64,000 bases of DNA. It comes from Candidatus Promineifilaceae bacterium. Lineage in GTDB: Bacteria > Chloroflexota > Anaerolineae > Promineifilales > Promineifilaceae. The notes under the pieces were generated by a model, which searched no databases, was not told where the DNA came from, and saw only the letters and a program-made list of their open reading frames with translations. Every line of letters begins with the position of its first letter. The stretch's first letter is position 1. The stretch is taken from NCBI GenBank assembly GCA_965223555.1, contig CBDCWU010000009.1, forward strand, positions 375,619 to 439,618, written 5' to 3'. Position numbers and translations under genes: made by a program. Shown here piece by piece: positions 1-64,000 of this stretch.

Positions 1-325
1 CAGCTGGGTGGATTTAGCCGCACCAGGCGAACGTATTTTTAGTACTTTCCCTGGGGAAAACTTTGGCTGGTGGCAAGGAAGCTCAATGTCTGTACCTTTT
101 GTTTCAGGTCAAGTGGCACTTTTGCAAAGTTTGTATCCTGGCCTGACATTGAACCAAACGAGCAATTTTCTGGCAGGCACAGCCAGCGCGCTTGATACTC
201 AAAATCCTAACTATAGCGGTTGGCTAGGGGCTGGTGAAGTGAACATTGGCGATAGTGTAGCTAATTTAGCTGCCGGCCAGTGGCCTACCTCGTCCTCAAA
301 TTTGTTCCAAAACTGCCTACCGTAA
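1..325 (+). CDS. Subtilisin-like S8 serine peptidase, C-terminal fragment (gene starts upstream of the window)
   Basis: Frame is open from nt 2. The ...SWVDLAAPGERIFSTFP...GWWQGSSMSVPFVSGQVALL motif matches the subtilase catalytic-Ser region (GTSMAAPHVAG-like). Confidence 0.75.
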   Translation, partial: SWVDLAAPGERIFSTFPGENFGWWQGSSMSVPFVSGQVALLQSLYPGLTLNQTSNFLAGTASALDTQNPNYSGWLGAGEVNIGDSVANLAAGQWPTSSSNLFQNCLP

Positions 326-410
326 AAGACCCTTGTAGTACTTTGGTACTATTTCAAGGGTGTGTGTATTTTTTCGGCCGTTTTCTGCATTTATTTCCTG
401 AGAAGAGGAG

Positions 411-451
411 GAGGAACTCGTTGAAGTGATGTTTCATTTCACGAGTTCCTC
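411..451. other. Imperfect inverted repeat (gaggaactcg ... cgagttcctc) between the S8 and M4 protease genes; no T-run
   Basis: 10-bp arms seen directly in the sequence. Function unknown; possibly a transcript-processing or regulatory hairpin. Confidence 0.3.
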
Positions 452-558
452 ACTGTTCCCCATTCCCACACTCAGGAGGTTTTATGTAGTTGGTTTCGTT
501 TCTCTTTTCATCTACGTTGTCTGGATTATATAAATATCAAAAGGAGTTTATTTCATAT

Positions 559-2337
559 ATGTTACGTTCAAATAAGACCCAAAAGGTTTTCTTGATGATG
601 ATTCTGTTAACTTTAACAGTTTCTATTTTAACAGCCTCGCTGGCAGCGGCAGAGGTTGAGGTTGCCGTTAGTGATGGCTTTGTGGCCCTTAATGGTAACG
701 ACGCGAAAGATTACCAGATCCCCTCCGATATGAATTTGGTATCACAGGAGACGCTAGCTAGTAATAGCTTTGCAGCCAATATCTCGGTCGAGCGATACCA
801 ACAATATTTAGGCGAAGCGGCCGTTTTTGGCGGGCAATTGACCATATATCGTGATGGTAATGGGGATGCTGTAGCTGTTATTGGCGCTCACTATGCCAAT
901 GTCTCCCCCCAAAACAGTGTAAATCTAACGGCTACTGAAGCGCGTCGCCGAGCAATGATTCAAATCGAACGGGGTGGCACTTGGCTGGTTGAGTTGATGA
1001 TTCACCCTGACACAGGCCATTACTTCTACATTGTGGAAAACCAACGTGTTGATAGCCGCTGGTTCCATTGGATTGATGCTGGTCATGGTGGTATCTTGAA
1101 TGCCTATAATGGGTTGGCGCATGGCACAGGTGTGGGTGTCTTAGGGGACACCAAAGACTTGACGGGTCTAACAACTCAGAATGGTAGCCAATATGAGATG
1201 GTCTCAGCTAACGGCCGTATCACCACTTATGACGGCCGTAATCGTGGTGACAACTTTTTACCCGGTGTGTTAGCAACAGATAGTGACGATATTTGGGATA
1301 CTGCTGGAAACAAATCCCCTGGCCAGCCTGCCTTAGTAGATGCCCATTTCTATGCCAACGTCACCGATCAATATTTGCAAACAGTGCATGGATTTGATTG
1401 GCTCAACCATTACTCGCAAGGCATTGTCTCCACAGCCCACTATAAACGTAGGCTCAATAATGCTTATTGGACTGGCTCCCAAATGCTTTATGGCGATGGG
1501 GACGGCTCGAGCTTCATCGAGCTCTCTGGCGAGTTGGATGTAGTTGGCCATGAACTAGCTCACGGTGTGACTGAAGCTACCAGTAATCTAGTTTATCAAA
1601 ACGAATCTGGCGCACTCAATGAAGCCTTCTCTGATATTATGGGCACTTCTATTGAGTATTATGATGGCAGTGGCAACTGGACAATTGGCGAAGACATTAC
1701 ACCTAATGATAATGGCATCCGTAACATGGCGAATCCTGGCGAAGATGGTGATCCTTCTCATTATGCCGATCGTTATACGGGCACAGGCGATAATGGTGGC
1801 GTACATATCAACAGCGGTATTGCCAACCACTGGTTCTATCTATTGGTCAATGGCGGTCAAAATGCCGATCCAACCTATGCTTCGGGCCAGAATGTCACAG
1901 GCATTGGCCTAGCAGCAGCAGCAGATATTGCTTTCTTAGGCTTCACTGCCTTGACAGCCAGTGCTGATTTCTGTGATGCACGGGCCAGCACGATTGCTGT
2001 CGCTGGCGGCAATGCAGCCAATGTAACAGACGCTTGGGATGAGGTCGGTGTAGATGACGCGCTTTGTAATAACACAGGCAATGGTGACGGCCCAGTTATT
2101 TCCAATGTCGCTTCGGCCAAACTCAATGGTCGCTCCTTTGAAATTACCTGGGACACCGATGTGGCTTCCGATAGCACTGTAACCTTCACCTGTTGTGGCA
2201 CTTATAATGATCCGGCTCAAGTAACCAGCCACCGGATGACCTTTAATGGTCAAAAGAATGTACTGTATGAATATTTTGTAACTTCCGAGAATAATGATGG
2301 CTCGACAACGGAAGGGCCATTCTATCATCAAAATTAG
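559..2337 (+). CDS. Secreted M4 (thermolysin-like) zinc metallopeptidase with C-terminal Fn3/PKD-like extension
   Basis: HEXXH motif (VVGHELAHGVTE) and downstream NEAFSDIMG glutamate motif, typical of M4. N-terminal signal peptide (MLRSNKTQKVFLMMILLTLTVSILTASLAAA). RBS AAGGAG at 541-546. The track ORF starts at 490, but 559 is the better start. Confidence 0.8.
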   Translation: MLRSNKTQKVFLMMILLTLTVSILTASLAAAEVEVAVSDGFVALNGNDAKDYQIPSDMNLVSQETLASNSFAANISVERYQQYLGEAAVFGGQLTIYRDGNGDAVAVIGAHYANVSPQNSVNLTATEARRRAMIQIERGGTWLVELMIHPDTGHYFYIVENQRVDSRWFHWIDAGHGGILNAYNGLAHGTGVGVLGDTKDLTGLTTQNGSQYEMVSANGRITTYDGRNRGDNFLPGVLATDSDDIWDTAGNKSPGQPALVDAHFYANVTDQYLQTVHGFDWLNHYSQGIVSTAHYKRRLNNAYWTGSQMLYGDGDGSSFIELSGELDVVGHELAHGVTEATSNLVYQNESGALNEAFSDIMGTSIEYYDGSGNWTIGEDITPNDNGIRNMANPGEDGDPSHYADRYTGTGDNGGVHINSGIANHWFYLLVNGGQNADPTYASGQNVTGIGLAAAADIAFLGFTALTASADFCDARASTIAVAGGNAANVTDAWDEVGVDDALCNNTGNGDGPVISNVASAKLNGRSFEITWDTDVASDSTVTFTCCGTYNDPAQVTSHRMTFNGQKNVLYEYFVTSENNDGSTTEGPFYHQN

Positions 2338-2362
2338 GCACAAGGGCCAATTGGCGTAAGAA

Positions 2363-3053: not shown

Positions 3054-3611
3054 TTACACACGGGTCAAATATTCACCAGTCGTCGTATTAATCCGAATGC
3101 GGTCACCAGCCTGAACAAAGAGAGGGGTTTTCACCTTCAATCCTGTCTGGGTAACAACTTCTTTAGTGGCCCCAGAAGCTGTGTCACCTGCAATAGCATT
3201 TTCAGCCTCTACCACATCAAATTCCATCGTAATAGGCAGATCATAATCAAGCACTTCTCCTTCATAGGAGAGAAGTTCCATCTCCATATTATCGACCATA
3301 TATTTGGCATCGTCGCCAATAACATCGTGGTTAATCATCTTTTGTTCGTAGGTGTCTATATCCATAAAGACATAGAAACGGCCGTCGTCGTATAGGTATT
3401 GGAACGGCCGTTTTTCTAATCGTATATCATTCACCCGGTCACCCGAAGTAAATGTCAGTTGCAAATTCGCGCCACTACGTAAATTTCGCACATTGACCCG
3501 AATCGTTGCTTTACCACGTCCTGGTTTGCTATGGCTATATTCTGTTACCTTGAACAAGTTGCCATCATGTTCAAAACTCGTGCCACGACGCAGTTGGTTT
3601 ACATCAATCAT
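3054..3611 (-). CDS. efp: Elongation factor P
   Basis: 185 aa. N-terminal MIDVNQLRRGTSFEHDGNLFKVTEYSHSKPGRGKA is the classic EF-P KOW-like fold with the conserved KPGKG loop. Confidence 0.9.
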   Translation of the reverse strand: MIDVNQLRRGTSFEHDGNLFKVTEYSHSKPGRGKATIRVNVRNLRSGANLQLTFTSGDRVNDIRLEKRPFQYLYDDGRFYVFMDIDTYEQKMINHDVIGDDAKYMVDNMEMELLSYEGEVLDYDLPITMEFDVVEAENAIAGDTASGATKEVVTQTGLKVKTPLFVQAGDRIRINTTTGEYLTRV

Positions 3612-4174
3612 TTACATTGCTCCTCATATCTACAATTTTTGTATTGGTCAAGAGTAGCTTGAACTATGCAGTGCACAAAGAAAAACTCATTCTTTTCTCT
3701 GTGAAACTCTGTGCCTTCTCCGTGTGTCTCTGTGTAACTTTCTTTTGACCATTACCCATATCTACAATTTTCCTGATCTGGCGAAAATTATACCTGCCAA
3801 AGTGACCGAACACCTACACTATTACGCCATTCACGAACGCCAGAATCCTTGATATTTTTCTCATCAGCTAGGGGGTCTGCCTCACACAAAGGGGTCAGGA
3901 CGGGACCGACGACTCCACCACAAAACGGCCGCTGACGAACCAACCAACAGTACCAAACCACCGACAAACCAAAGCAAATCCGCCAATGGCACTGCACTAC
4001 TGATTCTAATGCGACCCAATTCAATGACTAAAGGCCATAATGGTGTCATCATAGACCAAAGTTTAACATACTTGCCAGAAGGAGAGCAAAGACAGGCCAA
4101 ACGGCCGTTGTCCCATCCAGCCCTGGCAATGGTATACTTAATCTAAATTCTCCAATTTCTACGAGAGGTACAAA

Positions 4175-7719: not shown

Positions 7720-7721
7720 AA

Positions 7722-9413
7722 TTATCTCTCCGCCAGTACAACGTAATTGTTATTGTACCAATTAAGTATTATCGAAAAGACGATGCTAATCGCCAAATAA
7801 ACCAGCATCATCAGGATAACCAACTGCAAGGAACGGCCCGACTGGTTAATCGTCACATTTGAAACACGGTACATATCTGAAAAACCTAAGGCCAGACCCA
7901 AACTCGTATCCTTAATTAGGCTGAGATAGGTGCCAATCAGGGGAGGAATAATAACCCTTAAGGATTGTGGCAAGACCACTAGCCGGAGTCGTTGACTTTC
8001 GCTCAAACCTAACGCACGGGCTGCTTCTGACTGTCCTTTAGACACAGATTGAATGCCGGCCCGTACCAACTCAGCCAGACCGCCACCATAAAATAGTACC
8101 AAACCTATGAGTAACGCAGTGAATTCTGGTGTTAACTTGGTGCCACCAGCGATGTTCAAACCTTCGAAGGCGGGCACACTCCAAACAACTGGCTTTTCGC
8201 TGACAGGCACAATAAGATGCCCATTAGGATTTTCCAAAGTGACACGCTCTGCTGCTAATACAGACTTGGGAGCAGCAAATACTTCACAGCTCCCTTCGCC
8301 ATAGGCCTCTGCTGCTTGGTCAGCCCGATCAAAGCGGGTGATCTGGTAAGGAATACCTTGCCGACGTAACTGTGAAATAAAGTTAGCTTCCGACGGTGAA
8401 TCCCGCAAGACACAGATGGTGAGCGCGGCCGCGGCCAGATCCTCTTCCGATAATTGATCTAGTTCGCCGATAATATTGACACCAGTGCGATTGATCATCA
8501 ACTGCTCAATATCGCCTACTTCTCGAATCCGGCTGGCCTTTGTTGCTAACAAACCTTGCGTATCTGACAAAGCACCAGACACAAACCAACCAATGCCAAT
8601 GACGATGAGGAAAGAGAGGATGCCCAAACCCACTTTGTTACTGGCCTTGCCCGTTTGTTCTTCACGGCGGCCTAAAAAGATAGAGAGTACCTGATATTGA
8701 ATAACACCTAATACCAGAAATGCCAGCCAGATGGCAGCCGATGAAGTAAATTGCGGCCAAGGGAAGTTTAAGCCGCGATTATTAAAGAAGATGGGCAGTC
8801 CCAATAGTTGCACAGTATCTTGGAGATCTGGCCCAGCTAAAATAACGCCAAAATACAAAATAAATAGCACGATCAACAGGGGGATGTTACGCATCAACTC
8901 CACATACCATAGAGCGATTTGGCTTATCAGCCAATTGCTAGATAGGCGGGCAATACCGGCCAAGGTACCCACAATTGAAGTTAGGAGCACCCCCAAAAGC
9001 CCCACCTTCATGGTGTTCAAAAAGCCTTGATAGAAGGCATACCAATAAGAGTCGGTGGTTTCATAAGGCAAAACGGTTTCGCTAATATCAAAACCAGCCT
9101 GTGTACTCATGAAATCGAAGGCACAGCGGTAACTAAAGCTGCCATCCGAACAAATAAACTGGGATTCACCCAATTTGCCGACATTTGAAGCAAAGTTCGT
9201 GCCTAAAGTTTGGACAGCGATTATCACCAAGATAATGAAGCCAATTTGCCCAAACACGCCTAACACACGGCCGTCCCGCCAAAAAGGGATATTTTGGGTA
9301 GGGGCAGCACTTATTTCTGGTCCCATAATTCTCTCTCCTTCCCGAATCCTAATCCAAGCTAAACCAAGCCAACTGCCCAACAGGGTTTTCCCTGTTGGAA
9401 AGTAGACATCCAA
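7722..9413 (-). CDS. Amino-acid ABC transporter permease (AapQ/HisQ family, extended)
   Basis: SEAARALGLSESQRLRLVVLPQSLRVIIP permease signature. 563 aa. Sits 2 nt upstream of the second permease. Confidence 0.8.
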   Translation of the reverse strand: MDVYFPTGKTLLGSWLGLAWIRIREGERIMGPEISAAPTQNIPFWRDGRVLGVFGQIGFIILVIIAVQTLGTNFASNVGKLGESQFICSDGSFSYRCAFDFMSTQAGFDISETVLPYETTDSYWYAFYQGFLNTMKVGLLGVLLTSIVGTLAGIARLSSNWLISQIALWYVELMRNIPLLIVLFILYFGVILAGPDLQDTVQLLGLPIFFNNRGLNFPWPQFTSSAAIWLAFLVLGVIQYQVLSIFLGRREEQTGKASNKVGLGILSFLIVIGIGWFVSGALSDTQGLLATKASRIREVGDIEQLMINRTGVNIIGELDQLSEEDLAAAALTICVLRDSPSEANFISQLRRQGIPYQITRFDRADQAAEAYGEGSCEVFAAPKSVLAAERVTLENPNGHLIVPVSEKPVVWSVPAFEGLNIAGGTKLTPEFTALLIGLVLFYGGGLAELVRAGIQSVSKGQSEAARALGLSESQRLRLVVLPQSLRVIIPPLIGTYLSLIKDTSLGLALGFSDMYRVSNVTINQSGRSLQLVILMMLVYLAISIVFSIILNWYNNNYVVLAER

Positions 9414-9521: not shown

Positions 9522-10715
9522 TTAACGGAATGGTGGCGAGTACAACAGGCCGCCATCTGTCCATAGAGCATTCACACCGCGAGGCAGGTCAAACTTGAAG
9601 GGGGAATCGGGGCCAAGATTGGCCAGATAAATCTCTTCGTAATTGCCCACTTGTTTGATGATCTGGTAACAGAAATCATTATTCAAGCCCATAGCTGAAC
9701 CTAAATCACCCTCAACGCCAAGCAGGTTCAAGATTTCGGGATCGTCACTGCCCAACATTTCGTCCACATTCTGGGAATTTACGCCCTTTTCTTCGGCTTG
9801 CATGGTGCAGAAGGTAGACCATTGCACGATGTCAAACCAGTTATCATCGCCATGACGTACTAGTGGGCCAAGAGGCTCTTTAGACATGGTGACTTCCAAG
9901 ATAACATGGTCGGAAGGCTCGGTCATAATCACTTGTCCGCTAACCAGGCCAGATTTATCCGTCGTATATCCGTCACAACGCCCCTCGTCATAAGAGATAC
10001 GTGCATTATCGCCTTCAAAGGTAACGGCTTCATAGTTGATACCGAGGCTCGACATCACAGAGGCCAGGTTTAGCTCAGTAGTGGTACCAGCAGTCACACA
10101 TACGGAACCGCCTTCGAGGCCTTCTAGATCGGTAATGCCGGAATCTTTACGCACCATCATGCCTTGCCCATCGTAGAAGGTTGTGGCCACAAAGTTGAAG
10201 CCCAAGGCTGTATCACGGGTCGTGGTCCAAGTGGTCTGGCGTGAAAGCAAATCTACCTCACCAGATTGCAGGATGGGGAAGCGCTCGGTGGATGTATTGG
10301 GACGGGCAACAACGGCATCGGCATCGCCAAAGACGGCGGCTGCTATGACACGGCAATATTCCCAGTCAAAGCCAGAATAGCTGCCGTCGGCCTCAATAAA
10401 GCCAAAACCTGGCGAGGCACCTTGGGGTACACCACAAATTAGCTCGCCGCGATCTTGGACTGTTTGTAGGGTATCGCCCCCACCAGCAAATTCAATGGCC
10501 TCGGCTGCACCACCAGCAACAGCGTCGCCTGCCGCAGAAACGGCCGCTTCTGCGGTGGCTTGGGCATCTGCCAATTGTTGAGTTAAATCATCAATTTGGC
10601 CTTGTAAAGCGGCTGAATCGCCACTATCTCCACCACCACAGGCTACGATACCGAGGCTCAGAATAAGCATTGCAACAATAAATTTGATTCGTTTTGTCAT
10701 TTGTCTCTCCTCCAA
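9522..10715 (-). CDS. Amino-acid ABC transporter substrate-binding lipoprotein (family 3 SBP, AapJ-like)
   Basis: Lipoprotein signal with lipobox IVAC. SBP_bac_3-like core. First gene of a four-gene minus-strand operon. Confidence 0.75.
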   Translation of the reverse strand: MEERQMTKRIKFIVAMLILSLGIVACGGGDSGDSAALQGQIDDLTQQLADAQATAEAAVSAAGDAVAGGAAEAIEFAGGGDTLQTVQDRGELICGVPQGASPGFGFIEADGSYSGFDWEYCRVIAAAVFGDADAVVARPNTSTERFPILQSGEVDLLSRQTTWTTTRDTALGFNFVATTFYDGQGMMVRKDSGITDLEGLEGGSVCVTAGTTTELNLASVMSSLGINYEAVTFEGDNARISYDEGRCDGYTTDKSGLVSGQVIMTEPSDHVILEVTMSKEPLGPLVRHGDDNWFDIVQWSTFCTMQAEEKGVNSQNVDEMLGSDDPEILNLLGVEGDLGSAMGLNNDFCYQIIKQVGNYEEIYLANLGPDSPFKFDLPRGVNALWTDGGLLYSPPFR

Positions 10716-11442
10716 TGTGTAGAGTATTAATTTTGTTTTTTGAAACTTTTGCGTCGTGTGTTTGGGTAAATAATTCGCTTGTCTTTCACCTCCTTTAATG
10801 AACGGTCAGGCAGCTATGAATGTTTTACTCATTCTGTAAATGCCTTATTGCTTTTTTACTCGCAATTGCTTAGCGATCACGAGAGGATAAGAGAGATTGT
10901 TGAGTGGAGGGTAATGACCAGCAAGATAGGCGTTCATTGTATCGTTCACAATGAGGTGAGTTGCTAGTCGCCGATTTAAGGGGAAATCTTGCATTCGTAA
11001 TTGCATAGATTCTTGGATTTTTAGTATTGGTTGTTTCTTCCCGATATACTCGCATTAGAAGCTTTTCCTAATATGAGTGGATGCTTAGTATAGCCTTGCG
11101 TTCAAAATTATCAAGTTTTTGTTAAGGAAAGCTATTTTCTGGGGGAGAATTAGCAACAATGAATTACTCTCAAAACTTGACGATCTGGCCTCAAACAGAT
11201 CTGTCAACTTGGGGGCAAAGAACACCTACTCGCTTGCTTATTGAAATCAGCAACCAGGGTGATAAACTAGACTTGCCCAAACGGGTTGGCTACGACTTGC
11301 ACAATGCGATTTGGCACGGCTTGATAACCCTAGAGAATCTAAAACGGCCGAACACAAATTGCCCAGCTAACGCGGTCTGAAGGCTAACCAGAACGCAAGG
11401 TTGGTTGCTCGAAGAGGAAATGCTATCCTGCTCAAGATATTA

Positions 11443-11775
11443 CTAACGATTATCCACGAAGAGCAAAATCATCAAGATCACCTCGATTGCCTTGGTGACG
11501 AGGCCAAGAACGCTGCTCCATGGTTCAGGGTTGACGAGAAAATAGGCGATAATCGTGACACCTGTATAAACCAATAAGGCCCAATAGGCATAGCTGCGGA
11601 ATTCGTGAAAAAAAACGATAGGCAAGAATATAATTGCTAACAACCCGAGAAAGCCAAGGCCATTCAAGATGAACAAGGTGTTGCCAAAACCAATACCTAG
11701 CGGAACCAGATGAATAACGGCCGTTGCTAAGGTCAAAACAATGATACCAATTTGGGTCGTATTTAGCTTCTGCAT
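11443..11775 (-). CDS. Small integral membrane protein, hypothetical
   Basis: 110 aa with three or four predicted TM helices. Confidence 0.4.
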   Translation of the reverse strand: MQKLNTTQIGIIVLTLATAVIHLVPLGIGFGNTLFILNGLGFLGLLAIIFLPIVFFHEFRSYAYWALLVYTGVTIIAYFLVNPEPWSSVLGLVTKAIEVILMILLFVDNR

Positions 11776-12039: not shown

Positions 12040-12089
12040 GAATCGCCAAAACAGTAACCCAAATTTAGTTTACAGAAGGAGAACGTATT

Positions 12090-12386: not shown

Positions 12387-12396
12387 AGGAGATTGA

Positions 12397-14040
<1,644 letters not shown>

Positions 14041-51358: not shown

Positions 51359-51370
51359 ACTCTATTCTCC

Positions 51371-52534
51371 TTACCCATGCCTTCGCATGAAGCGTTCTAG
51401 GCGGTTGAGGGCTTCCTCGATTTTTTCGTAGGCGGTGGCGTAGGAGGCCCGCATGAAGCCTGCGCCGCTGGCACCAAAGGCTTCGCCCGGAACCATAGCC
51501 ACTTCTTCCTCCTCTAGCAATTTCATGGCAAACTCATCGCCGCCCATGCCGGTACGAGCGATGGAGGGGAAGGCGTAGAAAGCGCCGCGTGGCTCAAAGC
51601 AGTCCAGTCCCAAGCTGTTAAAGCCATCCACAATCAGGCGGCGACGACGGTCATATTCGCCCCGCATTTGCTCCACGTAAGCATTCGCTTCGGGGGTGAA
51701 GGCGGTGATGGCGGCGGCTTGGGCGGTGGTGGGCGCGGACATGATGGTGTATTGATGCACTTTGCGCATGGCGGCCAGCAAGTTAGGATTGGCGCAGGCG
51801 AAACCTAGCCGCCAGCCCGTCATGGCGTAATCCTTGCTAAAGCCACCCAGCAAAATGGTGCGATCCCGCATTCCGGGCAGGGTGGGCACACAGATATGGT
51901 CAATGCCATACACCAAGCGATCATAAATCTCGTCGGAGATAACGACGAGATCATGTTTTTCGGCCACGACGGCGATATCGGCCATGATGGTGGGGGTCAT
52001 AACGGCCCCAGTGGGGTTGTTGGGATAGCCAATGAGCAAGGCTTTGGTTTTGGGGGTCACGGCCGCTTCAATGGTTTCGGCCGTTACTTGAAAATCATCT
52101 TCTACATAACAAGGCACAGTAACGGCTACACCGCCCGCCAGTGTCACTTCGGGGGCATAGGAGACGAAACAGGGTTCGGGAATGATCACTTCGTCGCCAG
52201 GGTCGAGAACGGCCGTACAGGCCAAATACAAGGCCTCACTACCACCCACCGTAATAATCACCTCCGTCTCGGCATCATAGTCCACACCATACAGCTTGGC
52301 TAAATTGGCCACTAACGCTTGTCGCAGCTCCTGAATACCGCTGTTCGAGGTATAGGCCGTCTCTCCGCGCCGCAAGGAGGCAATGCCAGCCTCCAAAATC
52401 GGCTTCGGTGTCACAAAATCTGGCTCGCCAATTCCCAGCGAAATGACATCCTTCATCGTGGCGGCAATGTCAAAAAACTTGCGAATCCCCGAAGGGGGAA
52501 CTTGTTGAACTCTTTGAGAAATGAAACGTTGCAT
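51371..52534 (-). CDS. PLP-dependent class I/II aminotransferase (AspC family)
   Basis: Lys-PLP region GFSKDYAMTGWRLGF. 387 aa. Confidence 0.8.
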   Translation of the reverse strand: MQRFISQRVQQVPPSGIRKFFDIAATMKDVISLGIGEPDFVTPKPILEAGIASLRRGETAYTSNSGIQELRQALVANLAKLYGVDYDAETEVIITVGGSEALYLACTAVLDPGDEVIIPEPCFVSYAPEVTLAGGVAVTVPCYVEDDFQVTAETIEAAVTPKTKALLIGYPNNPTGAVMTPTIMADIAVVAEKHDLVVISDEIYDRLVYGIDHICVPTLPGMRDRTILLGGFSKDYAMTGWRLGFACANPNLLAAMRKVHQYTIMSAPTTAQAAAITAFTPEANAYVEQMRGEYDRRRRLIVDGFNSLGLDCFEPRGAFYAFPSIARTGMGGDEFAMKLLEEEEVAMVPGEAFGASGAGFMRASYATAYEKIEEALNRLERFMRRHG

Positions 52535-52642: not shown

Positions 52643-53374
52643 TTAGAGGCTGTTATGATCTTGGTTCAGCCATGCGCCAATATCGTCCAGCCAATCAGAA
52701 TCTTGATTTGTATCGAATATTTCCCGCGCATATTGCACCAATTCGCTAGGCAAGTTGCTCAAGGCTTCTTCTCTAGTTGCCACCCAATATGACTTGGCTC
52801 CCTGCCAATCTGATTGACGCAAGCGGCGAGCTTCGTCTAGCCAATAGCGGTTGGCTGGCTGGCCAGCGATATATTGGCTAATGAGCCATAAGCGAGTGGG
52901 CTGATTGAGTAATTTGACATCACGCCAGCCTTGGGAAACGAGAACGGCCGTCTCCCCCACACCCCCCGAGGCATCATCAATCAATGTTGAATGAACCTCA
53001 TACCCTTCTACAAATGGCATGGTCACGATGGATGGATAATAGCCATAACTGGGCCGGGCATTTGAGGGTACGGTCTCCGAAAAAACATCCTCGTCAATTT
53101 GGCACACGATCTTTCCGTCCCGAAATTGTGCCTGAATGGCTGCCCCATCGTTCATGTCAAAAAGATAGGCATGAGCTGGATAACCGGGTTGGTTGTAAAA
53201 CCAGAAGTGATTTTCACGGCTAGCCACACCACCTTGTGCATAGAATAAAATGTGTAATTTGCTCACAAATAGGTCAGGTGTTTCCGTTGCCGTTGTCTGG
53301 CGATACAGAAAACCCACCTTTTGGCCTTCAATATAAAAACTCTCCCAGATTTCACCTAGCAAAACCTCTTCCAT
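52643..53374 (-). CDS. Hypothetical protein
   Basis: 243-aa ORF with no recognisable motif. Confidence 0.35.
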   Translation of the reverse strand: MEEVLLGEIWESFYIEGQKVGFLYRQTTATETPDLFVSKLHILFYAQGGVASRENHFWFYNQPGYPAHAYLFDMNDGAAIQAQFRDGKIVCQIDEDVFSETVPSNARPSYGYYPSIVTMPFVEGYEVHSTLIDDASGGVGETAVLVSQGWRDVKLLNQPTRLWLISQYIAGQPANRYWLDEARRLRQSDWQGAKSYWVATREEALSNLPSELVQYAREIFDTNQDSDWLDDIGAWLNQDHNSL

Positions 53375-55475: not shown

Positions 55476-57407
55476 CTACGCATCAAAACGCAGCATGACC
55501 TCTTCCAGCTTTTTAGTTGAGCCAACCATCGTTACCTTGTCACCCAAGTGTAAGCGGGTGTAGCCGTGGGAGATGATAGTGTGATGGTCGCGGCTGACGG
55601 AGAGGATGAGGACATCGAAGGGGAGTCGTAAGTCACGCAAGGTAAGTCCATGAATATCGGGGTTACGGACTTCAATATCGACCACGTCTTGGTCCCCATC
55701 CATGCCCAACAGCATAGATGCACCAATAGGTGAACGCACAAAATGTTCTAAGAGGGAGACAACGGCCGTTTGTGGTTCCACAATCAAGGCTCCTAATTCA
55801 TGGAAACGGGGTACATTTTCTCGCTCATTCAACTGAACAACAACTGTCTCTATACCAAAATATTCATATACTAGCTCGCAGATTTGGTAATTCTCATCAT
55901 CTGACAGCATCGTTACCACACTGTCTGCGTTATGTAAATCTAACTCTTGCAAAGCCTCAATTGTCCAATCTGATAGTAAATGAACGTGAATATCAACGCC
56001 ATCCAACTCTTTTTGGCGCTCGGGATTGCATGTAGCAATCTTAACCTGCCAATCATGCTGCTGTAATTGACGGGCTACTTGGGTTGAACGGGGTGTCAGA
56101 CCAAAGATTACCGCGTCACGTACCCCATCAAATTCAGCATGCTTGGCCCGAACATGGCTCTCCCCTGCCCAGCTAATACCGCGCTTGAATAGAATTGGGC
56201 CTACAATTTCATTGACAACCACAATGGAGATGATCATGGTCACAAAACCAGAATCAATTTGCGTAAATTCACTAGCGGTTTCCTCTGCCAAACCCAAAGC
56301 AACACCGGCTTGTGTGACCAAAGACATCCAGAAGAGACGGCTGCGGGCAATGGGTTCACCCGCAATCAGTCCACCAGCCGCAGAGCCGATAATAATGGCG
56401 ATCAAGCGTACCGCAAAAAGAGCCAGAGCAATGGGCCAAGTTTCCAAAAAGACAGGCAACTCTAATAAAGCACCGACTAAGGTAAAAAAGAGCACATACA
56501 CAAAGGGGCCGGCATCATGCAGCACTTTGGCGAACTCCATACGGTGCCTACTGTAATTGTTAACCAGGAAGCTGGCCATCAAGCAGACGAGGAGAGGTTC
56601 AATAAAAATTTCAAATGGCAAAACCTCATGCGTATATTCGCGCACGAAATGGAGCAAAACGAAGGTGCCATAACCCGCCATCACAATCAAAAAAGCTTTA
56701 ATAGTTTGCCCTAACTCCAAAGCGAGTATGGCGGAGATGACATGATAAAGCAGATAGCCTACAACAGCAGCAAGTGCTAATTCCAGTAACAAGAGTAAGA
56801 AAAAACTAATTTGGATGCTTTGATCGGTTAAAAGGACGTTAGCCAAGGAGGCAGTCACGGCGAAGAGGGTGATGACAACCACATCACTAACTACTGTAAC
56901 GCCTAATACGGTTTGTGTAAACGGGCCTTTGGCGCGGAGTTCGTTGACAATGGCAATGGCGGAGGATGGTGAACGGGCTGTCATAATAGCACCTGCCAAT
57001 AGTGCAACTGCTAGGCGGGTGTTGGCTGACATCTCTTGCATGAAGGGAATGTAGGCGGCAAGAAAGTAGACGGCCGTTGTAATGAGGCCAAATGTCAGCA
57101 CCACAATCCCGGCAGTTATCCAGCTAATACTGCCAAAACGACTACGGAGTTCTGGCAAATAAAGTTCACTGCCAGCCGCAAAAGCAATGAAAGCGAGCGA
57201 TAATTCCTCTAGAAAAAAGAGTCCATGCCCCATCTCGTCGGTAACAAGGTCTAGCGCAAAGGGGCCAGCTATCACACCCGTAAAAAGATACCCAGTGATA
57301 ACGGGCAGCCCCCTGCTTTTAAAAAATTTTCCTACCTGCCAGGCGGCTAAAGCCACGAGGGTAAATCGAAAAAAGTAAATGGCTAATTCTTGGTATACTT
57401 GCATCAC
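55476..57407 (-). CDS. CPA2-family cation:proton antiporter with C-terminal RCK (TrkA-N/TrkA-C) domains
   Basis: 12-13 TM Na+/H+ exchanger fold followed by an NAD-binding-like RCK and TrkA-C. 643 aa. Confidence 0.75.
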   Translation of the reverse strand: MMQVYQELAIYFFRFTLVALAAWQVGKFFKSRGLPVITGYLFTGVIAGPFALDLVTDEMGHGLFFLEELSLAFIAFAAGSELYLPELRSRFGSISWITAGIVVLTFGLITTAVYFLAAYIPFMQEMSANTRLAVALLAGAIMTARSPSSAIAIVNELRAKGPFTQTVLGVTVVSDVVVITLFAVTASLANVLLTDQSIQISFFLLLLLELALAAVVGYLLYHVISAILALELGQTIKAFLIVMAGYGTFVLLHFVREYTHEVLPFEIFIEPLLVCLMASFLVNNYSRHRMEFAKVLHDAGPFVYVLFFTLVGALLELPVFLETWPIALALFAVRLIAIIIGSAAGGLIAGEPIARSRLFWMSLVTQAGVALGLAEETASEFTQIDSGFVTMIISIVVVNEIVGPILFKRGISWAGESHVRAKHAEFDGVRDAVIFGLTPRSTQVARQLQQHDWQVKIATCNPERQKELDGVDIHVHLLSDWTIEALQELDLHNADSVVTMLSDDENYQICELVYEYFGIETVVVQLNERENVPRFHELGALIVEPQTAVVSLLEHFVRSPIGASMLLGMDGDQDVVDIEVRNPDIHGLTLRDLRLPFDVLILSVSRDHHTIISHGYTRLHLGDKVTMVGSTKKLEEVMLRFDA

Positions 57408-57492: not shown

Positions 57493-59418
57493 TTAGGCAG
57501 CAAGTCGTAGCATAACCTCTTCCAGCTTTTCTTCAGAGCCAACGATGGTCACTTTGTCACCCAAGCGCAGACGGGTGTAACCATGGGAGATAAAAGTGCG
57601 ATGACCTCGGCTAACAGACAGGATCAATACATCGAGTGGTAGACGTAGGTCGCGCAGAGTCAGGCCATCAAGCTCAGGGTTGCGGACTTCGATGTCTATG
57701 ACATCCTGGATGCCCTCTGTGCCCAAGAGCAGCGATGCTCCAACAGGCGAACGCACAAAATGTTCTAGAAGTGAGACAACGGCCGTTTGTGGCTCAACAA
57801 TTAATGCGCCCAGTTCATGGAACCGAGAGGCATTCCCCCGCTCATTCAACTGAACAACCATGGTTTCAATGCCAAAATGTTCATACACCATTTCACAAAG
57901 TTGGTAATTCTCCTCATCAGATAGCAAGGTAACGATACTATCTGCATTAGTTATATTTAGTTGACGTAGTGTTGCTTTAGTCCAATCTGCTACTAAATGG
58001 ACTTGAATGTCGCTTTCATCTAACTCCTCCTTACGTGTTTCACTGCGTGTGGCAATCACTACTTGCCAACTATGTTGTTGCAGTTGGTGAGCCAGCTGTA
58101 CTGACTGGCGCGTTAAGCCAAAGATGATGACATCGCGGACACCATCGAAGGCAGGGGCCTCAGCACGGGTATGTGATTCACCAATGCGATTAATAGCCCA
58201 TTTCAACAACGGCGGGCCTACAATTTGGTTAAGGACTATGACCCCAATAGAAAGCGTTGCTAATTCTGCACCCCAAGTATGGAATTCTACGCCAATTTCC
58301 TTAGCTAGACCTACACTTACACCTGCTTGGGTGATAAAACCAAAACCAAGTAAAGCATTACCAACACTTCGATCTCGTGCTGCCATGCTCCCAGCAAAAC
58401 TACCAATAAAAATGCCCACTAGACGGACTGTAAAGAGGATAAGAATAATGCCCCAGGCTTGACCAATCACGTCAAGCTCTAACTCAATGCCTACCAATGT
58501 AAAGAAAACAAGAAATACGAGTGGCGACATCTCTTCAATAGTGTGTTGAAAATCTGAGGCAAGGCGCGAGTAATTGGTCACATAAAACCCTGCCGTCATA
58601 CAAATCAAGAGTGGCTCAGAGAAAAGACCAACTGGAAGAGAGAAGAGGTGAAAATCATGCAACTCAACCGAAAGCACAAAAACGCCTAGCCCAATTAGCA
58701 GAATCAAACTACTTCTGAGCAATGGGACAGGAAGGCTCGTAATCGCTTGAAGTAGCAGACCAATAAGAATACCTAATACAATATCGAGGAAAATCTCAAA
58801 AATAACAAGGGCCAGAAGACCGATATTGAATGTGGCTCCTTCTACAAGCACGGCCGCAACGGAAACGGAGGCAGCAAAGATGATAATAACAACAGCATCT
58901 TTTAGAACAGTGGCTCCTAATACTTTATGCGTAAATGGGCCGCGTGCGCGCAACTCTTTGATAATTGCCAAAGCTGATGAAGGGGAACGTGCAATCATAA
59001 TCGTTGTGCCTAGCAAGGCAATCGCCAAAATCTCTCTTTGGGGCAAGGCGACCATGAAGGGTACCATATCCTTGATTGAGAGGAAGGTTATGATACCGAT
59101 AGTAAATACAGCTATAACCTGCCCACTAATGATAGAGATGATGCTACGAAAATAGCCTCGAATGACTTGTAACTCAAGCTCTGCGCCAGCAGCAAAGGCA
59201 ATAAAGGCCAACGCCATTTCGTCGAGTAAGAGAAATTGAGGAATGTTTTGCTCATGAATGAAATCAAGTACAAAGGGACCTGTGAGAATGCCAATGAATA
59301 AAAAACCGCTGATAAGGGGTAATTTGAAGCGAACAAAAATATCACCCATCTGTCGGGCAGCCATAACTAGGACAGCGAGGCCTATGAAAACAGGGGCAAT
59401 TGCTAGAAAGTTATCCAT
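57493..59418 (-). CDS. CPA2-family cation:proton antiporter, tandem paralog
   Basis: Same architecture. C-terminal ~120 aa about 80% identical to the neighbour; TM region much more divergent. Confidence 0.75.
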   Translation of the reverse strand: MDNFLAIAPVFIGLAVLVMAARQMGDIFVRFKLPLISGFLFIGILTGPFVLDFIHEQNIPQFLLLDEMALAFIAFAAGAELELQVIRGYFRSIISIISGQVIAVFTIGIITFLSIKDMVPFMVALPQREILAIALLGTTIMIARSPSSALAIIKELRARGPFTHKVLGATVLKDAVVIIIFAASVSVAAVLVEGATFNIGLLALVIFEIFLDIVLGILIGLLLQAITSLPVPLLRSSLILLIGLGVFVLSVELHDFHLFSLPVGLFSEPLLICMTAGFYVTNYSRLASDFQHTIEEMSPLVFLVFFTLVGIELELDVIGQAWGIILILFTVRLVGIFIGSFAGSMAARDRSVGNALLGFGFITQAGVSVGLAKEIGVEFHTWGAELATLSIGVIVLNQIVGPPLLKWAINRIGESHTRAEAPAFDGVRDVIIFGLTRQSVQLAHQLQQHSWQVVIATRSETRKEELDESDIQVHLVADWTKATLRQLNITNADSIVTLLSDEENYQLCEMVYEHFGIETMVVQLNERGNASRFHELGALIVEPQTAVVSLLEHFVRSPVGASLLLGTEGIQDVIDIEVRNPELDGLTLRDLRLPLDVLILSVSRGHRTFISHGYTRLRLGDKVTIVGSEEKLEEVMLRLAA

Positions 59419-59486: not shown

Positions 59487-60041
59487 CTATTCGCGTTTAT
59501 CTATCCGTTCAAAGCGGTGCAACTGGGCCCCCTTATTGGCACCCATCATTTCTGCCTCTACCACAGATGCGGCTTGGGCTGCTTCGGCAAATTCGGCCAG
59601 CATAGCATAGTCGCTGGGAATAATCGCGTTTTGGTCGTTTAGTGTATCGATATCCATGCGGCTGAACCAGGCTACGCTACCTTCATCTTGTTCGCGAGCT
59701 TGGCCCCAAACGGCCGTTACCTCACACACAAAAAGCAAAAAATGGGCCGCTGTGCCATCATCGATCAAGCGCTCGCTAACGAGGCCGCGTAAGGCAATAA
59801 ATTGGGATTCCAGGCTAGTTTCCTCGTTCACTTCACGGGTAACGGCCGTGGCCAACTCTTCTCCAAAATCCCACTTGCCCCCCACCAAGGCCCACATCCC
59901 CTTGTAAGGATCACTATTGCGCTGAATCAATAAATATTCTGCATCTCGCCGAATAATAGCCACGACGATGGGCGCAGGGAGTTGTTGTTCTCGCCACCGT
60001 TGAGCCAAGGGCAAGGTATGTAAATCAGAAAATAACATCAT
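59487..60041 (-). CDS. NUDIX hydrolase
   Basis: Nudix box GKWDFGEELATAVTREVNEETSLE. Confidence 0.75.
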   Translation of the reverse strand: MMLFSDLHTLPLAQRWREQQLPAPIVVAIIRRDAEYLLIQRNSDPYKGMWALVGGKWDFGEELATAVTREVNEETSLESQFIALRGLVSERLIDDGTAAHFLLFVCEVTAVWGQAREQDEGSVAWFSRMDIDTLNDQNAIIPSDYAMLAEFAEAAQAASVVEAEMMGANKGAQLHRFERIDKRE

Positions 60042-61959: not shown

Positions 61960-62360
61960 ATACCAAACTACCCAAATATCATAGCCCAATCCATGATGGT
62001 TGTAATAATTGTTAAGCTTTTTACCAAGATGCTTATACTTTGGTTTTCCTAAGAGGATAAGAAAAAGAGACCTAATGTGCAACTTCCCAGAACACAAATA
62101 TGGCAAGAATGAGGGCAATCTCGCCTGGTCACCCATATATGGAGGGCTACGATCTACAGCTAATGCTCTACAACAAAACTGCAATAGGTCTGAGAAGTGC
62201 GCTCTTGCCATATTTGTCAGAAGTGATGATTCTGGGCGGTGTTTGCCCAGATATAGGTCAAGAAAAAGTTGCACATTGGATAAAGAGGAAAATAGGATGT
62301 ATCGAGAGATGATTGTGGAGTGAACAAAACCAGCTCCACCATCAGAACTATAAAAGTGGA

Positions 62361-62397
62361 AAAGAGCCATTGGTTTTAGGCCAATGGCTCTTTTTGC
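62361..62397. terminator. Bidirectional terminator (agagccattgg-TTTTAGG-ccaatggctct, A/T runs both sides)
   Basis: 11-bp perfect stem directly downstream of the minus-strand beta-helix gene stop. Confidence 0.7.
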
Positions 62398-62402
62398 GTT
62401 GA

Positions 62403-64000
62403 TTACAATTGGATCAAGATATTCTGTATATATGCTGTCAGCAGGTTAGCTTGCTCTACCGTTAAATCTTGACCGCTTTGGGCAGCAATGTGATTGAGAA
62501 GGGCATTAAGGTGTGCCTCTGTTCCTGCGATATCTCCATTATTAAAAGCAGCTTGTGCATCGTACACCTTGGTCAGCAAAGCGTTTTCAGCACCATGCGG
62601 CAAATTCATGCTTAGAATCAGGATTTCCAGACCATCCAAACTATCTAAACAGCCATCTCCATCGGCATCTAGCCCAGTGGCATCAACGAGAGGACAGTTA
62701 TCGTCTTCATTTGGAATACCATCACCATCACTATCAGGATTCACCTCATAAGCACCTCTGTCTGGCGCGTTTCCTTGTGGGCGAGGCATGCCCAGCAAAT
62801 CATCAACAACTGGCAATAAGCTGCCTGTATCAATTGCTGGAGAAGATGAGAGCAGTTGATAATCCCCATTGGTTGAATCGACAAACTGCGGGTCAGCAAC
62901 AACATTGTTAATACTAGAGACAACACCATGTTCGTTGAGAAAGTTGTTAAAGTAAAGGTTGGATTCGGTCGAAATAGGAACCAGTGGCTCGGTAAGGTAC
63001 CCATAATTAATCGCCGTATTGGGCGTATTTGTAATGATGTTATTGCTAATATTTACATAGGCATCACTATTTTCTTGACCAAGCTGTATCATGATGGAGC
63101 CGATGGCGTCTGGGTCGTGATACAGTTGAGTTCCTGCTTCATCGATGGTGTTATGCCAGATATCGACCTGAATAGGATTGTCAGTAGCTGCTGCATTGCT
63201 CCAAAAACTGATTGCACTACCACCATCAGCAGCACTGTTGTGCAAAAAGAGGTTGTTAAAAATTGTGGCCTTAAACCCAATGTTGGAAGGTGTAATACTC
63301 ATGGCACCACCTAACCTATTAGGTGCTGTGTTGTTCTTAAAAATGGAATGGCTTATCACGATATTTTTAGTTCTGGCAGTAAGTCCACCGCCTCTCCAAT
63401 CGCTTTTATTGTTAACAAACCTACTGTTTGAAACAGACAATTCGGAGCCGACTTCGCTGACATGTAACCCGCCACCTTGATAGTATGCGTAATTGTTGAT
63501 AAATGAGACATTGTCTAGACTAGCACTTTGGATAGCGTGGGCAGCACCTCCATATCTTCCCATATTGTTGGAAAAATGAACAGTAGCTGCAGTTAGCCTA
63601 TTTGCGTAAACTGCACCACCACGCCCATTGTTATAAAGTTCGACTGTGTTATTTGTGAATGAACTATTATACAGTTCTAGGTGGCCATCTTTAATATGGA
63701 CGGCTCCACCCTCCTTAGACATTCCGTTTGTAAATAGTAAGTCCTCAAGCTGTAAATGGTGCTGTCCCTCAACATGGAGCAAGCGAAATGCTGGAACTGG
63801 GTGAGCATCATCCGTCCGTTGGATGGTGCTACCATTTCCATAGATGGCTAAATCGTCGGTAATAATCGGGAGCCCTATTGGGTCACCAATATCTGTATAA
63901 GCATGAATATTTTGGAGATTATAGAGACACGCTTCTCCGGCATCACCAAGAACAATGACATCTTGTCCTTGTGCTGCATTGGCGTTCTCAATAGCGTTAA
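62403..64000 (-). CDS. Secreted right-handed parallel beta-helix protein with thrombospondin-type-3 Ca-binding repeats (DxDGDGxxDxxD) and C-terminal helical domain; 5' end beyond window
   Basis: Periodic N/S/T-x-(I/V/F)-x-N-N beta-helix rungs. DSDGDGIPNEDDNCP and DADGDGCLD repeats. The frame remains open to the window edge. Confidence 0.7.
   Translation of the reverse strand, partial: NAIENANAAQGQDVIVLGDAGEACLYNLQNIHAYTDIGDPIGLPIITDDLAIYGNGSTIQRTDDAHPVPAFRLLHVEGQHHLQLEDLLFTNGMSKEGGAVHIKDGHLELYNSSFTNNTVELYNNGRGGAVYANRLTAATVHFSNNMGRYGGAAHAIQSASLDNVSFINNYAYYQGGGLHVSEVGSELSVSNSRFVNNKSDWRGGGLTARTKNIVISHSIFKNNTAPNRLGGAMSITPSNIGFKATIFNNLFLHNSAADGGSAISFWSNAAATDNPIQVDIWHNTIDEAGTQLYHDPDAIGSIMIQLGQENSDAYVNISNNIITNTPNTAINYGYLTEPLVPISTESNLYFNNFLNEHGVVSSINNVVADPQFVDSTNGDYQLLSSSPAIDTGSLLPVVDDLLGMPRPQGNAPDRGAYEVNPDSDGDGIPNEDDNCPLVDATGLDADGDGCLDSLDGLEILILSMNLPHGAENALLTKVYDAQAAFNNGDIAGTEAHLNALLNHIAAQSGQDLTVEQANLLTAYIQNILIQL

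Follow-up and report, generated by a model that had tools for sequence, protein, structure and literature searches.

A HIP-class iterated palindrome with a CGGCCG core in a clade of Chloroflexota and in tailed-phage contigs

An iterated palindrome throughout a 64-kb window

The DNA analysed here, referred to as the window, is a stretch of 64,000 nucleotides from a Candidatus Promineifilaceae bacterium of the Chloroflexota (GCA_965223555.1, contig CBDCWU010000009.1, positions 375,619 to 439,618 of the forward strand) with a GC content of 48.6%. A simple longest open reading frame (ORF) call gave 53 genes and a coding fraction of 0.89; groEL, cysS, gatB and an aminotransferase gene are among them, and a predicted type II restriction-modification pair lies between the latter two. 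Throughout the window the palindromic octamer ACGGCCGT recurs, in part extended to the decamer AACGGCCGTT, around an inner hexamer CGGCCG that is the EagI site. A first-pass annotation of this DNA had put the element at about 60 octamers and about 27 decamers and had compared it with the highly iterated palindrome HIP1 of cyanobacteria. Exact searches returned 57 octamers (890 per Mb) and 27 decamers, while 100 dinucleotide-preserving shuffles contained on average 0.47 octamers and 0.05 decamers, with a maximum of one decamer.

The over-representation also survived comparison with a third-order Markov background, the measure by which the first-pass annotation had proposed to judge it. Window-derived expectations of orders 1, 2 and 3 were 0.57, 1.08 and 2.11 for the octamer and 0.05, 0.10 and 0.23 for the decamer, so that the octamer is 27-fold in excess over the third-order model (more than 100-fold over the shuffles) and the decamer 116-fold. 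The hexamer CGGCCG was found 100 times, with 12.8, 20.5 and 26.6 copies expected at the same orders. Among all 8-mers of the window the octamer ranks joint first, and the most frequent unrelated 8-mer has 12 copies. The sites, located by exact search and, where a gene context or a relative is mentioned, by gene call or alignment, are the following:

1211-1218: ACGGCCGT (in AACGGCCGTA)
1232-1239: ACGGCCGT (in GACGGCCGTA)
2410-2419: AACGGCCGTT, intergenic
2774-2783: AACGGCCGTT
2898-2907: AACGGCCGTT, intergenic
3378-3385: ACGGCCGT (in AACGGCCGTC)
3403-3412: AACGGCCGTT
4100-4109: AACGGCCGTT, intergenic
9267-9274: ACGGCCGT (in CACGGCCGTC)
11716-11725: AACGGCCGTT
12468-12477: AACGGCCGTT, in groEL
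16155-16162: ACGGCCGT (in GACGGCCGTT)
21477-21484: ACGGCCGT (in TACGGCCGTT)
22135-22142: ACGGCCGT (in TACGGCCGTT)
24390-24399: AACGGCCGTT
24735-24742: ACGGCCGT (in AACGGCCGTC)
26071-26080: AACGGCCGTT
26712-26721: AACGGCCGTT
26849-26856: ACGGCCGT (in AACGGCCGTA)
28460-28467: ACGGCCGT (in CACGGCCGTT)
28992-29001: AACGGCCGTT
30125-30132: ACGGCCGT (in GACGGCCGTT)
31128-31137: AACGGCCGTT
32403-32410: ACGGCCGT (in GACGGCCGTG)
32608-32615: ACGGCCGT (in AACGGCCGTG)
33539-33548: AACGGCCGTT, in the MalT-like regulator gene
33625-33632: ACGGCCGT (in TACGGCCGTT)
34018-34025: ACGGCCGT (in CACGGCCGTT)
34416-34425: AACGGCCGTT
34580-34587: ACGGCCGT (in CACGGCCGTT)
34671-34680: AACGGCCGTT
35275-35284: AACGGCCGTT
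35820-35829: AACGGCCGTT
36763-36772: AACGGCCGTT
37173-37182: AACGGCCGTT
42081-42088: ACGGCCGT (in AACGGCCGTA), outside called genes
43120-43127: ACGGCCGT (in CACGGCCGTT)
43746-43753: ACGGCCGT (in GACGGCCGTT)
43804-43813: AACGGCCGTT
44616-44625: AACGGCCGTT
45665-45672: ACGGCCGT (in AACGGCCGTC)
45745-45752: ACGGCCGT (in AACGGCCGTG)
47525-47534: AACGGCCGTT, in gatB, kept in relatives
47816-47825: AACGGCCGTT, in gatB, kept in relatives
48414-48421: ACGGCCGT, in gatB, kept in 7 of 8 genomes
48779-48788: AACGGCCGTT
52209-52216: ACGGCCGT, in the aminotransferase gene, kept in 6 of 6 genomes
52944-52951: ACGGCCGT, kept in L020
53747-53754: ACGGCCGT, in a kinase gene, kept in L020
54528-54535: ACGGCCGT, in a kinase gene, kept in L020
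55464-55471: ACGGCCGT (in TACGGCCGTT), intergenic
55761-55770: AACGGCCGTT
57070-57077: ACGGCCGT (in GACGGCCGTT)
57778-57787: AACGGCCGTT
59709-59718: AACGGCCGTT, kept in L020
59842-59849: ACGGCCGT, kept in L020
61289-61296: ACGGCCGT (in AACGGCCGTA)

Several positions in the first-pass annotation were off by 1 to 29 bases (24371 for 24390, 34387 for 34416, 47528 for 47525 and 55758 for 55761). The octamers that it had placed in groEL and gatB are there, with one and three copies, respectively, while cysS (18429-19871) has none and contains only a near-copy, TACGGCCGCT, at about 19376.

The distribution over genes and reading frames was analyzed next to the peptides that the octamer encodes. Fifty-two octamers (91%) lie in genes and five between them, which matches the coding fraction. 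The codon-position check proposed in the first-pass annotation showed that all three frames are used, in a ratio of 29:16:7, giving the peptides Thr-Ala-Val, (Asn/Asp/His)-Gly-Arg and x-Arg-Pro-x. Thr-Ala-Val is written ACG-GCC-GTN in 29 of its 30 occurrences in the window (3.0 expected from codon usage), and [NDHY]-Gly-Arg is written xAC-GGC-CGT in 16 of 24 (0.97 expected). The tripeptide Thr-Ala-Val is itself about 4-fold more frequent than amino-acid frequencies predict (30 versus 7.0), whereas the reverse tripeptide Val-Ala-Thr, with 6 copies, is not enriched. The motif therefore overrides synonymous choice and also alters protein sequence.

These data bear on the possibility that the copies are remnants of a small mobile element or a repetitive extragenic palindromic (REP)-like repeat, a product of selection on a peptide motif, or an assembly artefact. 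Bare repetition is all that speaks for such an origin. The flanks of the copies are unrelated beyond about 5 bases, and 91% of the copies lie in ordinary genes, at orthologous positions in relatives; the use of three frames and the unenriched reverse tripeptide argue against a peptide motif; and the pattern recurs in independent assemblies from ENA, NCBI, JGI and Logan. This group of explanations is already refuted by the results, and its probability is negligible. A repeat of the REP type or a miniature inverted-repeat transposable element was likewise rejected on account of the coding location and of a conservation that fades about 5 bases from the core, and a role as hairpin or terminator was ruled out, most copies being coding and close pairs showing no larger structure. 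The motif thus belongs to the DNA as such; peptides, RNA genes and mobile repeats do not account for it.

Carriers, retained sites, near-variants and phage contigs

Among the 120 library proteins that scored best against the GatB of the window, identities were 74-100%, and the organisms named were Ca. Leptofilum and metagenome-assembled genomes (MAGs) labelled 'Ardenticatenaceae', 'Anaerolineaceae' and 'Anaerolineales', all of them Chloroflexota. Ca. Leptofilum is classified in the Promineifilaceae, Ardenticatenia. For comparison we used nine loci of 15-21 kb around gatB or adjoining the restriction-modification cassette, with GatB proteins 70-90% identical to that of the window. The DNA examined comprises the 64-kb window and pieces of about 21 kb from relatives, less than 10% of any genome. 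The numbers of octamers in the nine loci are:

L020, ENA metagenome contig: 37 ACGGCCGT
L021, ENA metagenome contig: 19 ACGGCCGT
L022, Ca. Leptofilum: 28 ACGGCCGT
L023, ENA metagenome contig: 26 ACGGCCGT
L024, JGI metagenome 3300037722: 7 ACGGCCGT
L025, GCA_016710325.1: 30 ACGGCCGT
L026, GCA_020634245.1: 33 ACGGCCGT
L107, GCA_020634415.1: 23 ACGGCCGT
L108, GCA_014584575.1: 38 ACGGCCGT

The octamer is the most frequent 8-mer in eight of the nine loci (L020-L023, L025, L026, L107 and L108), the exception being L024 with its lower density. Densities in host loci range from 0.45 to 1.8 per kb, most of them lying between 890 and 1830 per Mb and that of L024 at 450. In ten pooled lineage loci (246 kb) we counted 298 octamers, compared with 3.06 expected from a motif-masked third-order background. 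The densest host locus, L108, has 38 octamers in 20.8 kb, yet no copy of AACGGCCGTT, its position -1 being C, T or G and not A; the outer flank preference accordingly drifts while the octamer stays constant. No enrichment of the octamer was found in 19 control loci from Acidobacteriota and Actinomycetota, which carry homologues 41-48% identical to a ScyE-like protein of the window, nor in about 80 unrelated metagenome loci. The motif thus characterises a clade of Chloroflexota made up of relatives of Ca. Leptofilum/Promineifilaceae and of 'Ardenticatenaceae' MAGs.

In four of the loci from unrelated soil bacteria a different GC palindrome or an alternating tract was strongly repeated: GCGCGCGC and CGCGCGCG occur in 9-21 copies per 9-21 kb in L003, L008 and L018 (Acidobacteriota/Pyrinomonadaceae), and GCGCGC in 58 copies in 12.5 kb of L032.

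The comparison of relatives that the first-pass annotation had recommended revealed that sites at orthologous positions are kept well beyond the background. In five genes shared by the window and L020, all nine octamers are retained, while arbitrary 8-nucleotide windows are identical in only 10-33% of cases and third-position identity is 0.51-0.68. Codon alignments of gatB and the aminotransferase gene from 6-8 genomes, in which third-position identity falls to 0.44-0.55, show single sites that persist in all 6 of the genomes aligned or in 7 of 8. When L107, L108 and a kinase gene were added (3-10 genomes per gene), the octamer was kept in 32 of 38 site-by-genome comparisons. At conserved four-fold codons of this extended set the third base is identical in 64 of 66 cases (0.97) within window motifs and in 1182 of 2447 (0.48) outside them (Fisher p = 9e-18). 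Synonymous sites are saturated in these comparisons, and the motif sites are nonetheless shared. Lineage-specific gains include amino-acid replacements: Thr-Ala-Lys became Thr-Ala-Val in gatB of L026, and Ala-Glu-Ile or Gln-Ala-Ile became Thr-Ala-Val in L025. Site retention is thus far above the neutral background, and sites are created even at amino-acid cost.

Of the 100 CGGCCG sites in the window, 27 are perfect decamers and 47 are exactly one base off the decamer. In all 47 the deviating base is at position 1, 2, 9 or 10, and the core is never affected. The outer variants mostly have 4-6 copies each, compared with about 0.1 expected; in relatives and phages, core variants number 0-2 per variant versus tens for most outer variants. 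CGGCCG outside a decamer-like context occurs near its expected frequency in the window, and the hexamer is therefore not avoided. Beyond the decamer there is a weak symmetric bias, GGAAA before and TTTCC after the hexamer (GGAAACGGCCGTTTCC), which is gone about 5 bases from the core, and the closely spaced pairs 1211/1232 and 3378/3404 have no larger repeat in common. At position 1 of the octamer, where the consensus is A (the 298 perfect octamers of the pooled 246 kb), T was found 67 times versus 6.7 expected, G 57 versus 10.1 and C 9 versus 6.3, a gradient like that of a site recognised by a protein. The motif is thus composed of an invariant core and a graded periphery.

Deviations confined to the outside of the hexamer are the argument that Elhai advanced for a methyltransferase in the case of HIP1 (PMC4390886), and they fit an explanation of the motif as a neutral by-product. 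In this explanation a CGGCCG cytosine methyltransferase, together with mismatch repair favouring the methylated sequence (very-short-patch repair or the ratchet of Elhai), turns near-sites into sites and protects existing ones, so that no function is required. Such enzymes exist, since methylated CGGCCG (4mC and 5mC) is listed in the Nanomotif supplement, only in unrelated metagenome bins. The precursors that should be consumed are, however, not depleted. In the pooled 246 kb, octamers with one core change comprise 31 transitions (22.5 expected) and 27 transversions (36.5 expected), and the C-to-T type near-sites ATGGCCGT, ACAGCCGT and ACGACCGT occur 15, 13 and 3 times with 9.3, 9.6 and 3.5 expected, so the depletion expected under very-short-patch type repair is absent. 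The undepleted near-motifs count against a simple conversion ratchet, and we consider a neutral repair bias possible though rather unlikely.

The motif is also abundant in phage DNA. IMG/VR was scanned for AACGGCCGTT with ACGGCCGT 20-50 bases downstream, which gave 84 stretches, and the 34 loci of at least 3 kb with at least 1.5 octamers per kb among L111-L190 were taken as the phage set, with 787 octamers in 318 kb. Seven viral contigs of 30-100 kb have 1.8-3.1 octamers per kb across most of their sampled length, and one motif-rich viral contig comes from the same metagenome as the host locus L024. Tailed-phage genes were identified in L179, L157, L132, L182 and L156, namely those for the large terminase (E = 1e-113), portal, tape-measure, head-morphogenesis and head-protease proteins, and motif copies are located within these structural and packaging genes. 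Frame use in the phage set is 210:164:68, and the one-off pattern is as in the hosts. L179 encodes a 417-aa DNA methyltransferase with an SPPYP catalytic motif (9695-10948) near the terminase and portal genes. Its family differs from that of the window enzyme described below; L134 has a close copy and L135 a weak match, and the remaining motif-rich phage loci yielded none. As a member of another SPPY family that these phages do not have in common, it was rejected as a shared motif factor.

In hosts and phages alike, the depletion of most other hexamer palindromes rich in GC is 5- to 25-fold, and within the phage contigs 5- to 20-fold. Observed versus expected counts in the phage loci are 6/122 for CGATCG, 6/98 for GCATGC, 18/159 for GGGCCC, 43/298 for GGCGCC and 36/223 for CCGCGG, and in the host loci 3/67.5 for GGGCCC and 9/61 for GCATGC. 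Such avoidance suggests that restriction in this lineage is heavy and varied. CGGCCG, in contrast, is enriched both in phage loci (1527 versus 454, 3.4-fold) and in host loci (384 versus 90, about 4-fold), which excludes it as a restriction target. That phages purging nearly all other GC-rich hexamer palindromes accumulate the motif disfavours restriction and roles confined to the chromosome, among them the nucleoid organisation suggested for HIP1 (PMC5861425), and favours a host-wide repair bias, which phage DNA replicating in the hosts would meet as well, or mimicry of a tag of self DNA.

The phage enrichment also fits poorly with a classical uptake sequence, in which a competence receptor would prefer DNA with the motif and recombination would spread it by molecular drive. 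Uptake signal sequences (USS) and DNA uptake sequences (DUS) typically occur about once per kb in all frames, affect peptides, have a strict core whose flanks are graded, and are conserved between related species, and the motif matches them in all of this; for HIP1, a role as signal for uptake or recombination has recently been put forward. Known uptake sequences are, however, non-palindromic, and in Neisseria they are depleted in recently acquired and phage DNA, while the phage contigs here reach 1.8-3.1 per kb (a density biased upwards by the motif-based search) versus 0.45-1.8 in host loci. Competence is undocumented for these organisms, and the window contains no competence gene. An uptake sequence spread by molecular drive thus appears quite unlikely.

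The restriction-modification cassette and other neighbouring genes

A predicted type II restriction-modification pair occupies 49281-51361 on the minus strand, between the aminotransferase gene and gatB, within a 3.4-kb octamer-free stretch adjoining gatB. Its two genes, candidates at most for a part in the motif, are:

49281-50597, minus strand: DNA methyltransferase (N6/N4), 438 aa, intact, with motif I LDPFVGTGTT and motif IV SPPY (PF01555)
50598-51361, minus strand: partner nuclease, cut short, winged helix plus PD-(D/E)XK fold (homology and predicted fold)

In the nuclease gene a TTG of the relatives is replaced by an in-frame TAG (50726-50728); homology resumes past the stop, and the ORF left in the window (50726-51358) encodes 210 aa versus about 254 in relatives. 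In L024 (1094-2664) the nuclease has shrunk to an 86-aa remnant, while in L107 (10001-12078) and L108 (10001-12087) both genes are intact and overlapping. A nuclease neighbour adjoins the methyltransferase in most of the 82 compared loci (55 members, one neighbour family), and the neighbour of about 254 aa is named 'endonuclease' by NCBI in several MAGs. Its predicted fold (pLDDT 93.8) is a generic PD-(D/E)XK domain (Hjc, NucS/EndoMS, Cas4) with a winged helix and did not match restriction enzymes of known specificity; neither cassette protein matches a Pfam nuclease family.

It could be suggested that the methyltransferase at 49281-50597 is the writer of the motif, i.e. that a former CGGCCG restriction-modification system is losing its nuclease and that the orphan enzyme drives or marks the sites, in parallel with HIP1 and DmtC, a CGATCG methyltransferase. 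The intact 438-aa SPPY enzyme beside a nuclease that is broken in the window and reduced to a remnant in L024 agrees with this, as does the constant position of the cassette in the window, L024, L107 and L108-L110, with the aminotransferase gene on one side and gatB on the other. The closest methyltransferase homologue outside the lineage (58% identical, beside an intact nuclease) is that of L028, a contig on which CGGCCG is absent versus 17.4 expected and is the most depleted hexamer palindrome. CGGCCG is the most depleted hexamer on L045, L038, L075 and L036 as well. Over 80 homologue loci, however, it shows just a mild deficit (ratio 0.58, rank 17 of 64; controls 0.78), and GGCGCC, GGGCCC and CAGCTG fit equally well as the target of the cassette; these three are avoided by the phages and CGGCCG is not. 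Furthermore, L107 and L108 have 1.3-1.8 motifs per kb despite an intact nuclease, and L020-L023, L025 and L026, which have no cassette at this position, are equally motif-rich, so that density does not track the state of the cassette. With its low GC content (41-47%) and near absence of motifs in the window, the cassette looks like a recent arrival. That this enzyme is the writer therefore seems very unlikely; it would in any case be an addition, compatible both with a tag and with a neutral repair bias, and we regard the cassette as an interesting neighbour and do not count it as part of the mechanism.

In L107, two short ORFs (37 and 43 aa) with Pfam matches to the N-terminus of GatB lie at 12075-12811, between the cassette and the full gatB, which suggests duplicated 5' fragments of gatB from insertion or recombination at a variable spot. 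Contigs with distant homologues of the methyltransferase are nearly devoid of GGCC (observed/expected 0/57.7 in L052, 2/89.8 in L065 and 0/25.4 in L036). L052 and L065 are rich in HIP1-type sites, with 81 and 87 CGATCG and 9 and 22 GCGATCGC, and L095 has 18 GCGATCGC with a mildly low GGCC (74 versus 130). Such HIP1-rich, GGCC-poor contigs are probably cyanobacterial, with a history of HaeIII-type restriction.

Elsewhere in the window, the HhH-GPD glycosylase at 23014-23706 (230 aa) was considered as a Mig-like T:G repair enzyme associated with cytosine methylation and rejected, as its scores are EndoIII/DR2438-like and below the family cut-off; it is closest to the Deinococcus DR2438/EndoIII type. 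The gene of a MalT-like regulator of the LuxR family (33499-36210, 903 aa) contains 8 octamers within 2.7 kb, a density threefold that of the window as a whole. No octamer is present between 37182 and 42081, a 4.9-kb region of higher GC content (52.7%) in which the GC skew switches. It encodes a 720-aa protein (38637-40799) that begins with an EAD7 effector-associated domain and weakly matches the NACHT type, besides a DUF1186 protein and ORFs that match no family, and is followed by genes for a CHAT/HetF-like protein (42359-44086) and a Cas4-like PD-(D/E)XK protein (44274-45074). The region and the two genes may form a defence island. Two adjacent paralogues (55476-57407, 643 aa, and 57493-59418, 641 aa) fuse a cation/proton antiporter-like membrane domain to TrkA-type domains. 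A duplicated permease of the ADOP family, named for Acidobacteria, is encoded at 15019-17424 of this Chloroflexota genome, and the best matches of a ScyE-like protein (36343-37533, 396 aa), 41-48% identical, are from Acidobacteriota and Acidimicrobiia; both observations hint at gene sharing between soil or sludge phyla.

A possible tag of self DNA and comparison with known systems

The first-pass annotation had read the element as a HIP1-like iterated palindrome, and in abundance, frame use, effect on codons, retention and outer-only deviations this reading was borne out. As to mechanism, we infer a sequence-specific protein as reader of the motif, the sites being held by selection or by a selection-like drive. 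Such a protein would require the exact CGGCCG core and prefer A/T flanks, and it would itself exert the selection or drive that keeps the sites. On the model of HIP1, with its methylation-dependent effect on transformation and its proposed Chi-like action, the motif would then most likely act as a tag, probably methylated, that marks DNA as the lineage's own and favours its processing, be it uptake, recombination or escape from a nuclease; a tag of self would also account for the accumulation of the motif by phages. We give this interpretation about an even chance of being correct.

The alternative of a neutral repair bias has to be weighed here once more. At CCWGG in Escherichia coli, Dcm and Vsr cause shifts of roughly two-fold or less, and the 30- to 100-fold excess found here is far above such an effect. 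Moreover, several changes are needed for the gains observed, amino-acid replacements among them. These costly gains, the magnitude of the excess and the undepleted near-motifs speak against a simple repair ratchet.

Several points weigh against a protein-read tag. A strong repair bias towards the motif would also give retention at orthologous sites, so that apparent conservation is expected under it as well as under selection. The spacing between sites is approximately random (coefficient of variation 0.67-1.14 versus about 0.95 for random placement), and a constraint on spacing is accordingly unsupported. No protein reading or writing the motif was identified in the sampled host and phage loci, and the one methyltransferase of the window could not be tied to CGGCCG by palindrome avoidance in 80 homologue loci. 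In about 250 kb of host and 318 kb of phage loci no convincing signature of a 5-methylcytosine methyltransferase (PCQ...ENV) was found; this and the lack of a Vsr gene in the sampled DNA also argue against the repair bias, if weakly for less than a tenth of any genome. The phage loci were picked via the motif, which biases their density upwards, and were not assigned to hosts. Finally, the motif is present in every Chloroflexota genome retrieved, and the limit of the clade thus lies outside this sample.

A more specific form of the tag reading is a palindromic watermark of self read by a host nuclease or by a recombination or defence system, that is, an orientation-free, probably methylated Chi-like tag that phages would have been selected to copy at host density or above. 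We consider this version unlikely. If true, it would be a case of molecular mimicry of a genome-wide identity tag and would provide an explanation for HIP elements in general, among them HIP1, for which the idea of a watermark has already been voiced.

The carriers are filamentous bacteria, abundant in activated sludge and soils and described for the most part as MAGs, and comparing gene content with motif abundance across the Chloroflexota is a direct route to the responsible proteins. The motif may also be of use as a marker in binning, in assigning phages and plasmids to hosts and in recognising recently acquired DNA. Our literature search, partial in its coverage, returned no report of the motif as an iterated element or of iterated palindromes in Chloroflexota, and a prior description is possible.

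Among known systems, HIP1 is the closest. Both elements are GC-rich palindromic octamers, at mostly 890-1830 per Mb here and 300-2700 for HIP1, with excesses of 27- to 100-fold and 15- to 300-fold, respectively. Both occur in all frames and between genes, are conserved at orthologous positions, have palindromic extensions that vary with the lineage, and deviate outside an inner hexamer of the methyltransferase or restriction type (CGATCG in HIP1, CGGCCG here). The conservation of HIP1 sites has been interpreted as selection, and a part in nucleoid organisation has been proposed (PMC5861425); Elhai took the deviations outside the hexamer as a sign of a methyltransferase and a methyl-directed ratchet (PMC4390886); and HIP1 stimulates transformation in a way that depends on methylation, for which Kamoku and Nielsen suggest a Chi-like action (bioRxiv 10.1101/2024.09.10.611283). 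The two differ in phylum (Cyanobacteria versus Chloroflexota), sequence and inner hexamer, and the window has no copy of GCGATCGC (HIP1). Whereas HIP1 has DmtA and DmtC, only a candidate is at hand as cognate methyltransferase for CGGCCG. For HIP1 a periodicity of 10-90 kb along the chromosome is described; the 64 kb analysed here cover short-range spacing, which is near random. The abundance in phages has no comparable report for HIP1 in the cyanophage literature we found.

Alternate HIPs are known within cyanobacteria, namely GGGATCCC in Synechococcus JA-3-3Ab and JA-2-3B'a, CAGGCCTG in PCC 6312 and GGCGCC in Calothrix. There, too, a different palindrome fills the role in each lineage, and CAGGCCTG shares the GGCC centre; those palindromes replace HIP1 within one phylum, whereas the motif described here is apparently independent and spans several genera of another.

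The uptake sequences of Pasteurellaceae (USS) and Neisseriaceae (DUS) resemble the motif in a density of about 1 per kb, coding use of all frames, peptide effects, a strict core and family-level conservation, but are non-palindromic, with known receptors and demonstrated uptake, and the phages are motif-rich in our case. Chi, recognised by RecBCD/AddAB, is likewise a short over-represented word that marks self DNA to a nuclease or recombination machine. It is, however, asymmetric and co-oriented with replication, while the motif is its own reverse complement and no nuclease is linked to it; a Chi-type hotspot was rejected, as a palindrome has no strand bias. Dcm/Vsr at CCWGG in E. coli illustrates that directional T:G repair can over-represent a methyltransferase site, with the difference that the predicted loss of T-containing precursors is not seen here.

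Taken together, the motif is a HIP-class iterated palindrome, an analogue of HIP1 and not HIP1 in the strict sense, and apparently a second, independent case of the HIP1 type with another phylum and another sequence. HIP1 has been an open puzzle for about 30 years, and the HIP1 literature we found concerns cyanobacteria only; with a second HIP, any explanation, whether a repair ratchet, an uptake or recombination tag or nucleoid organisation, must suit both.

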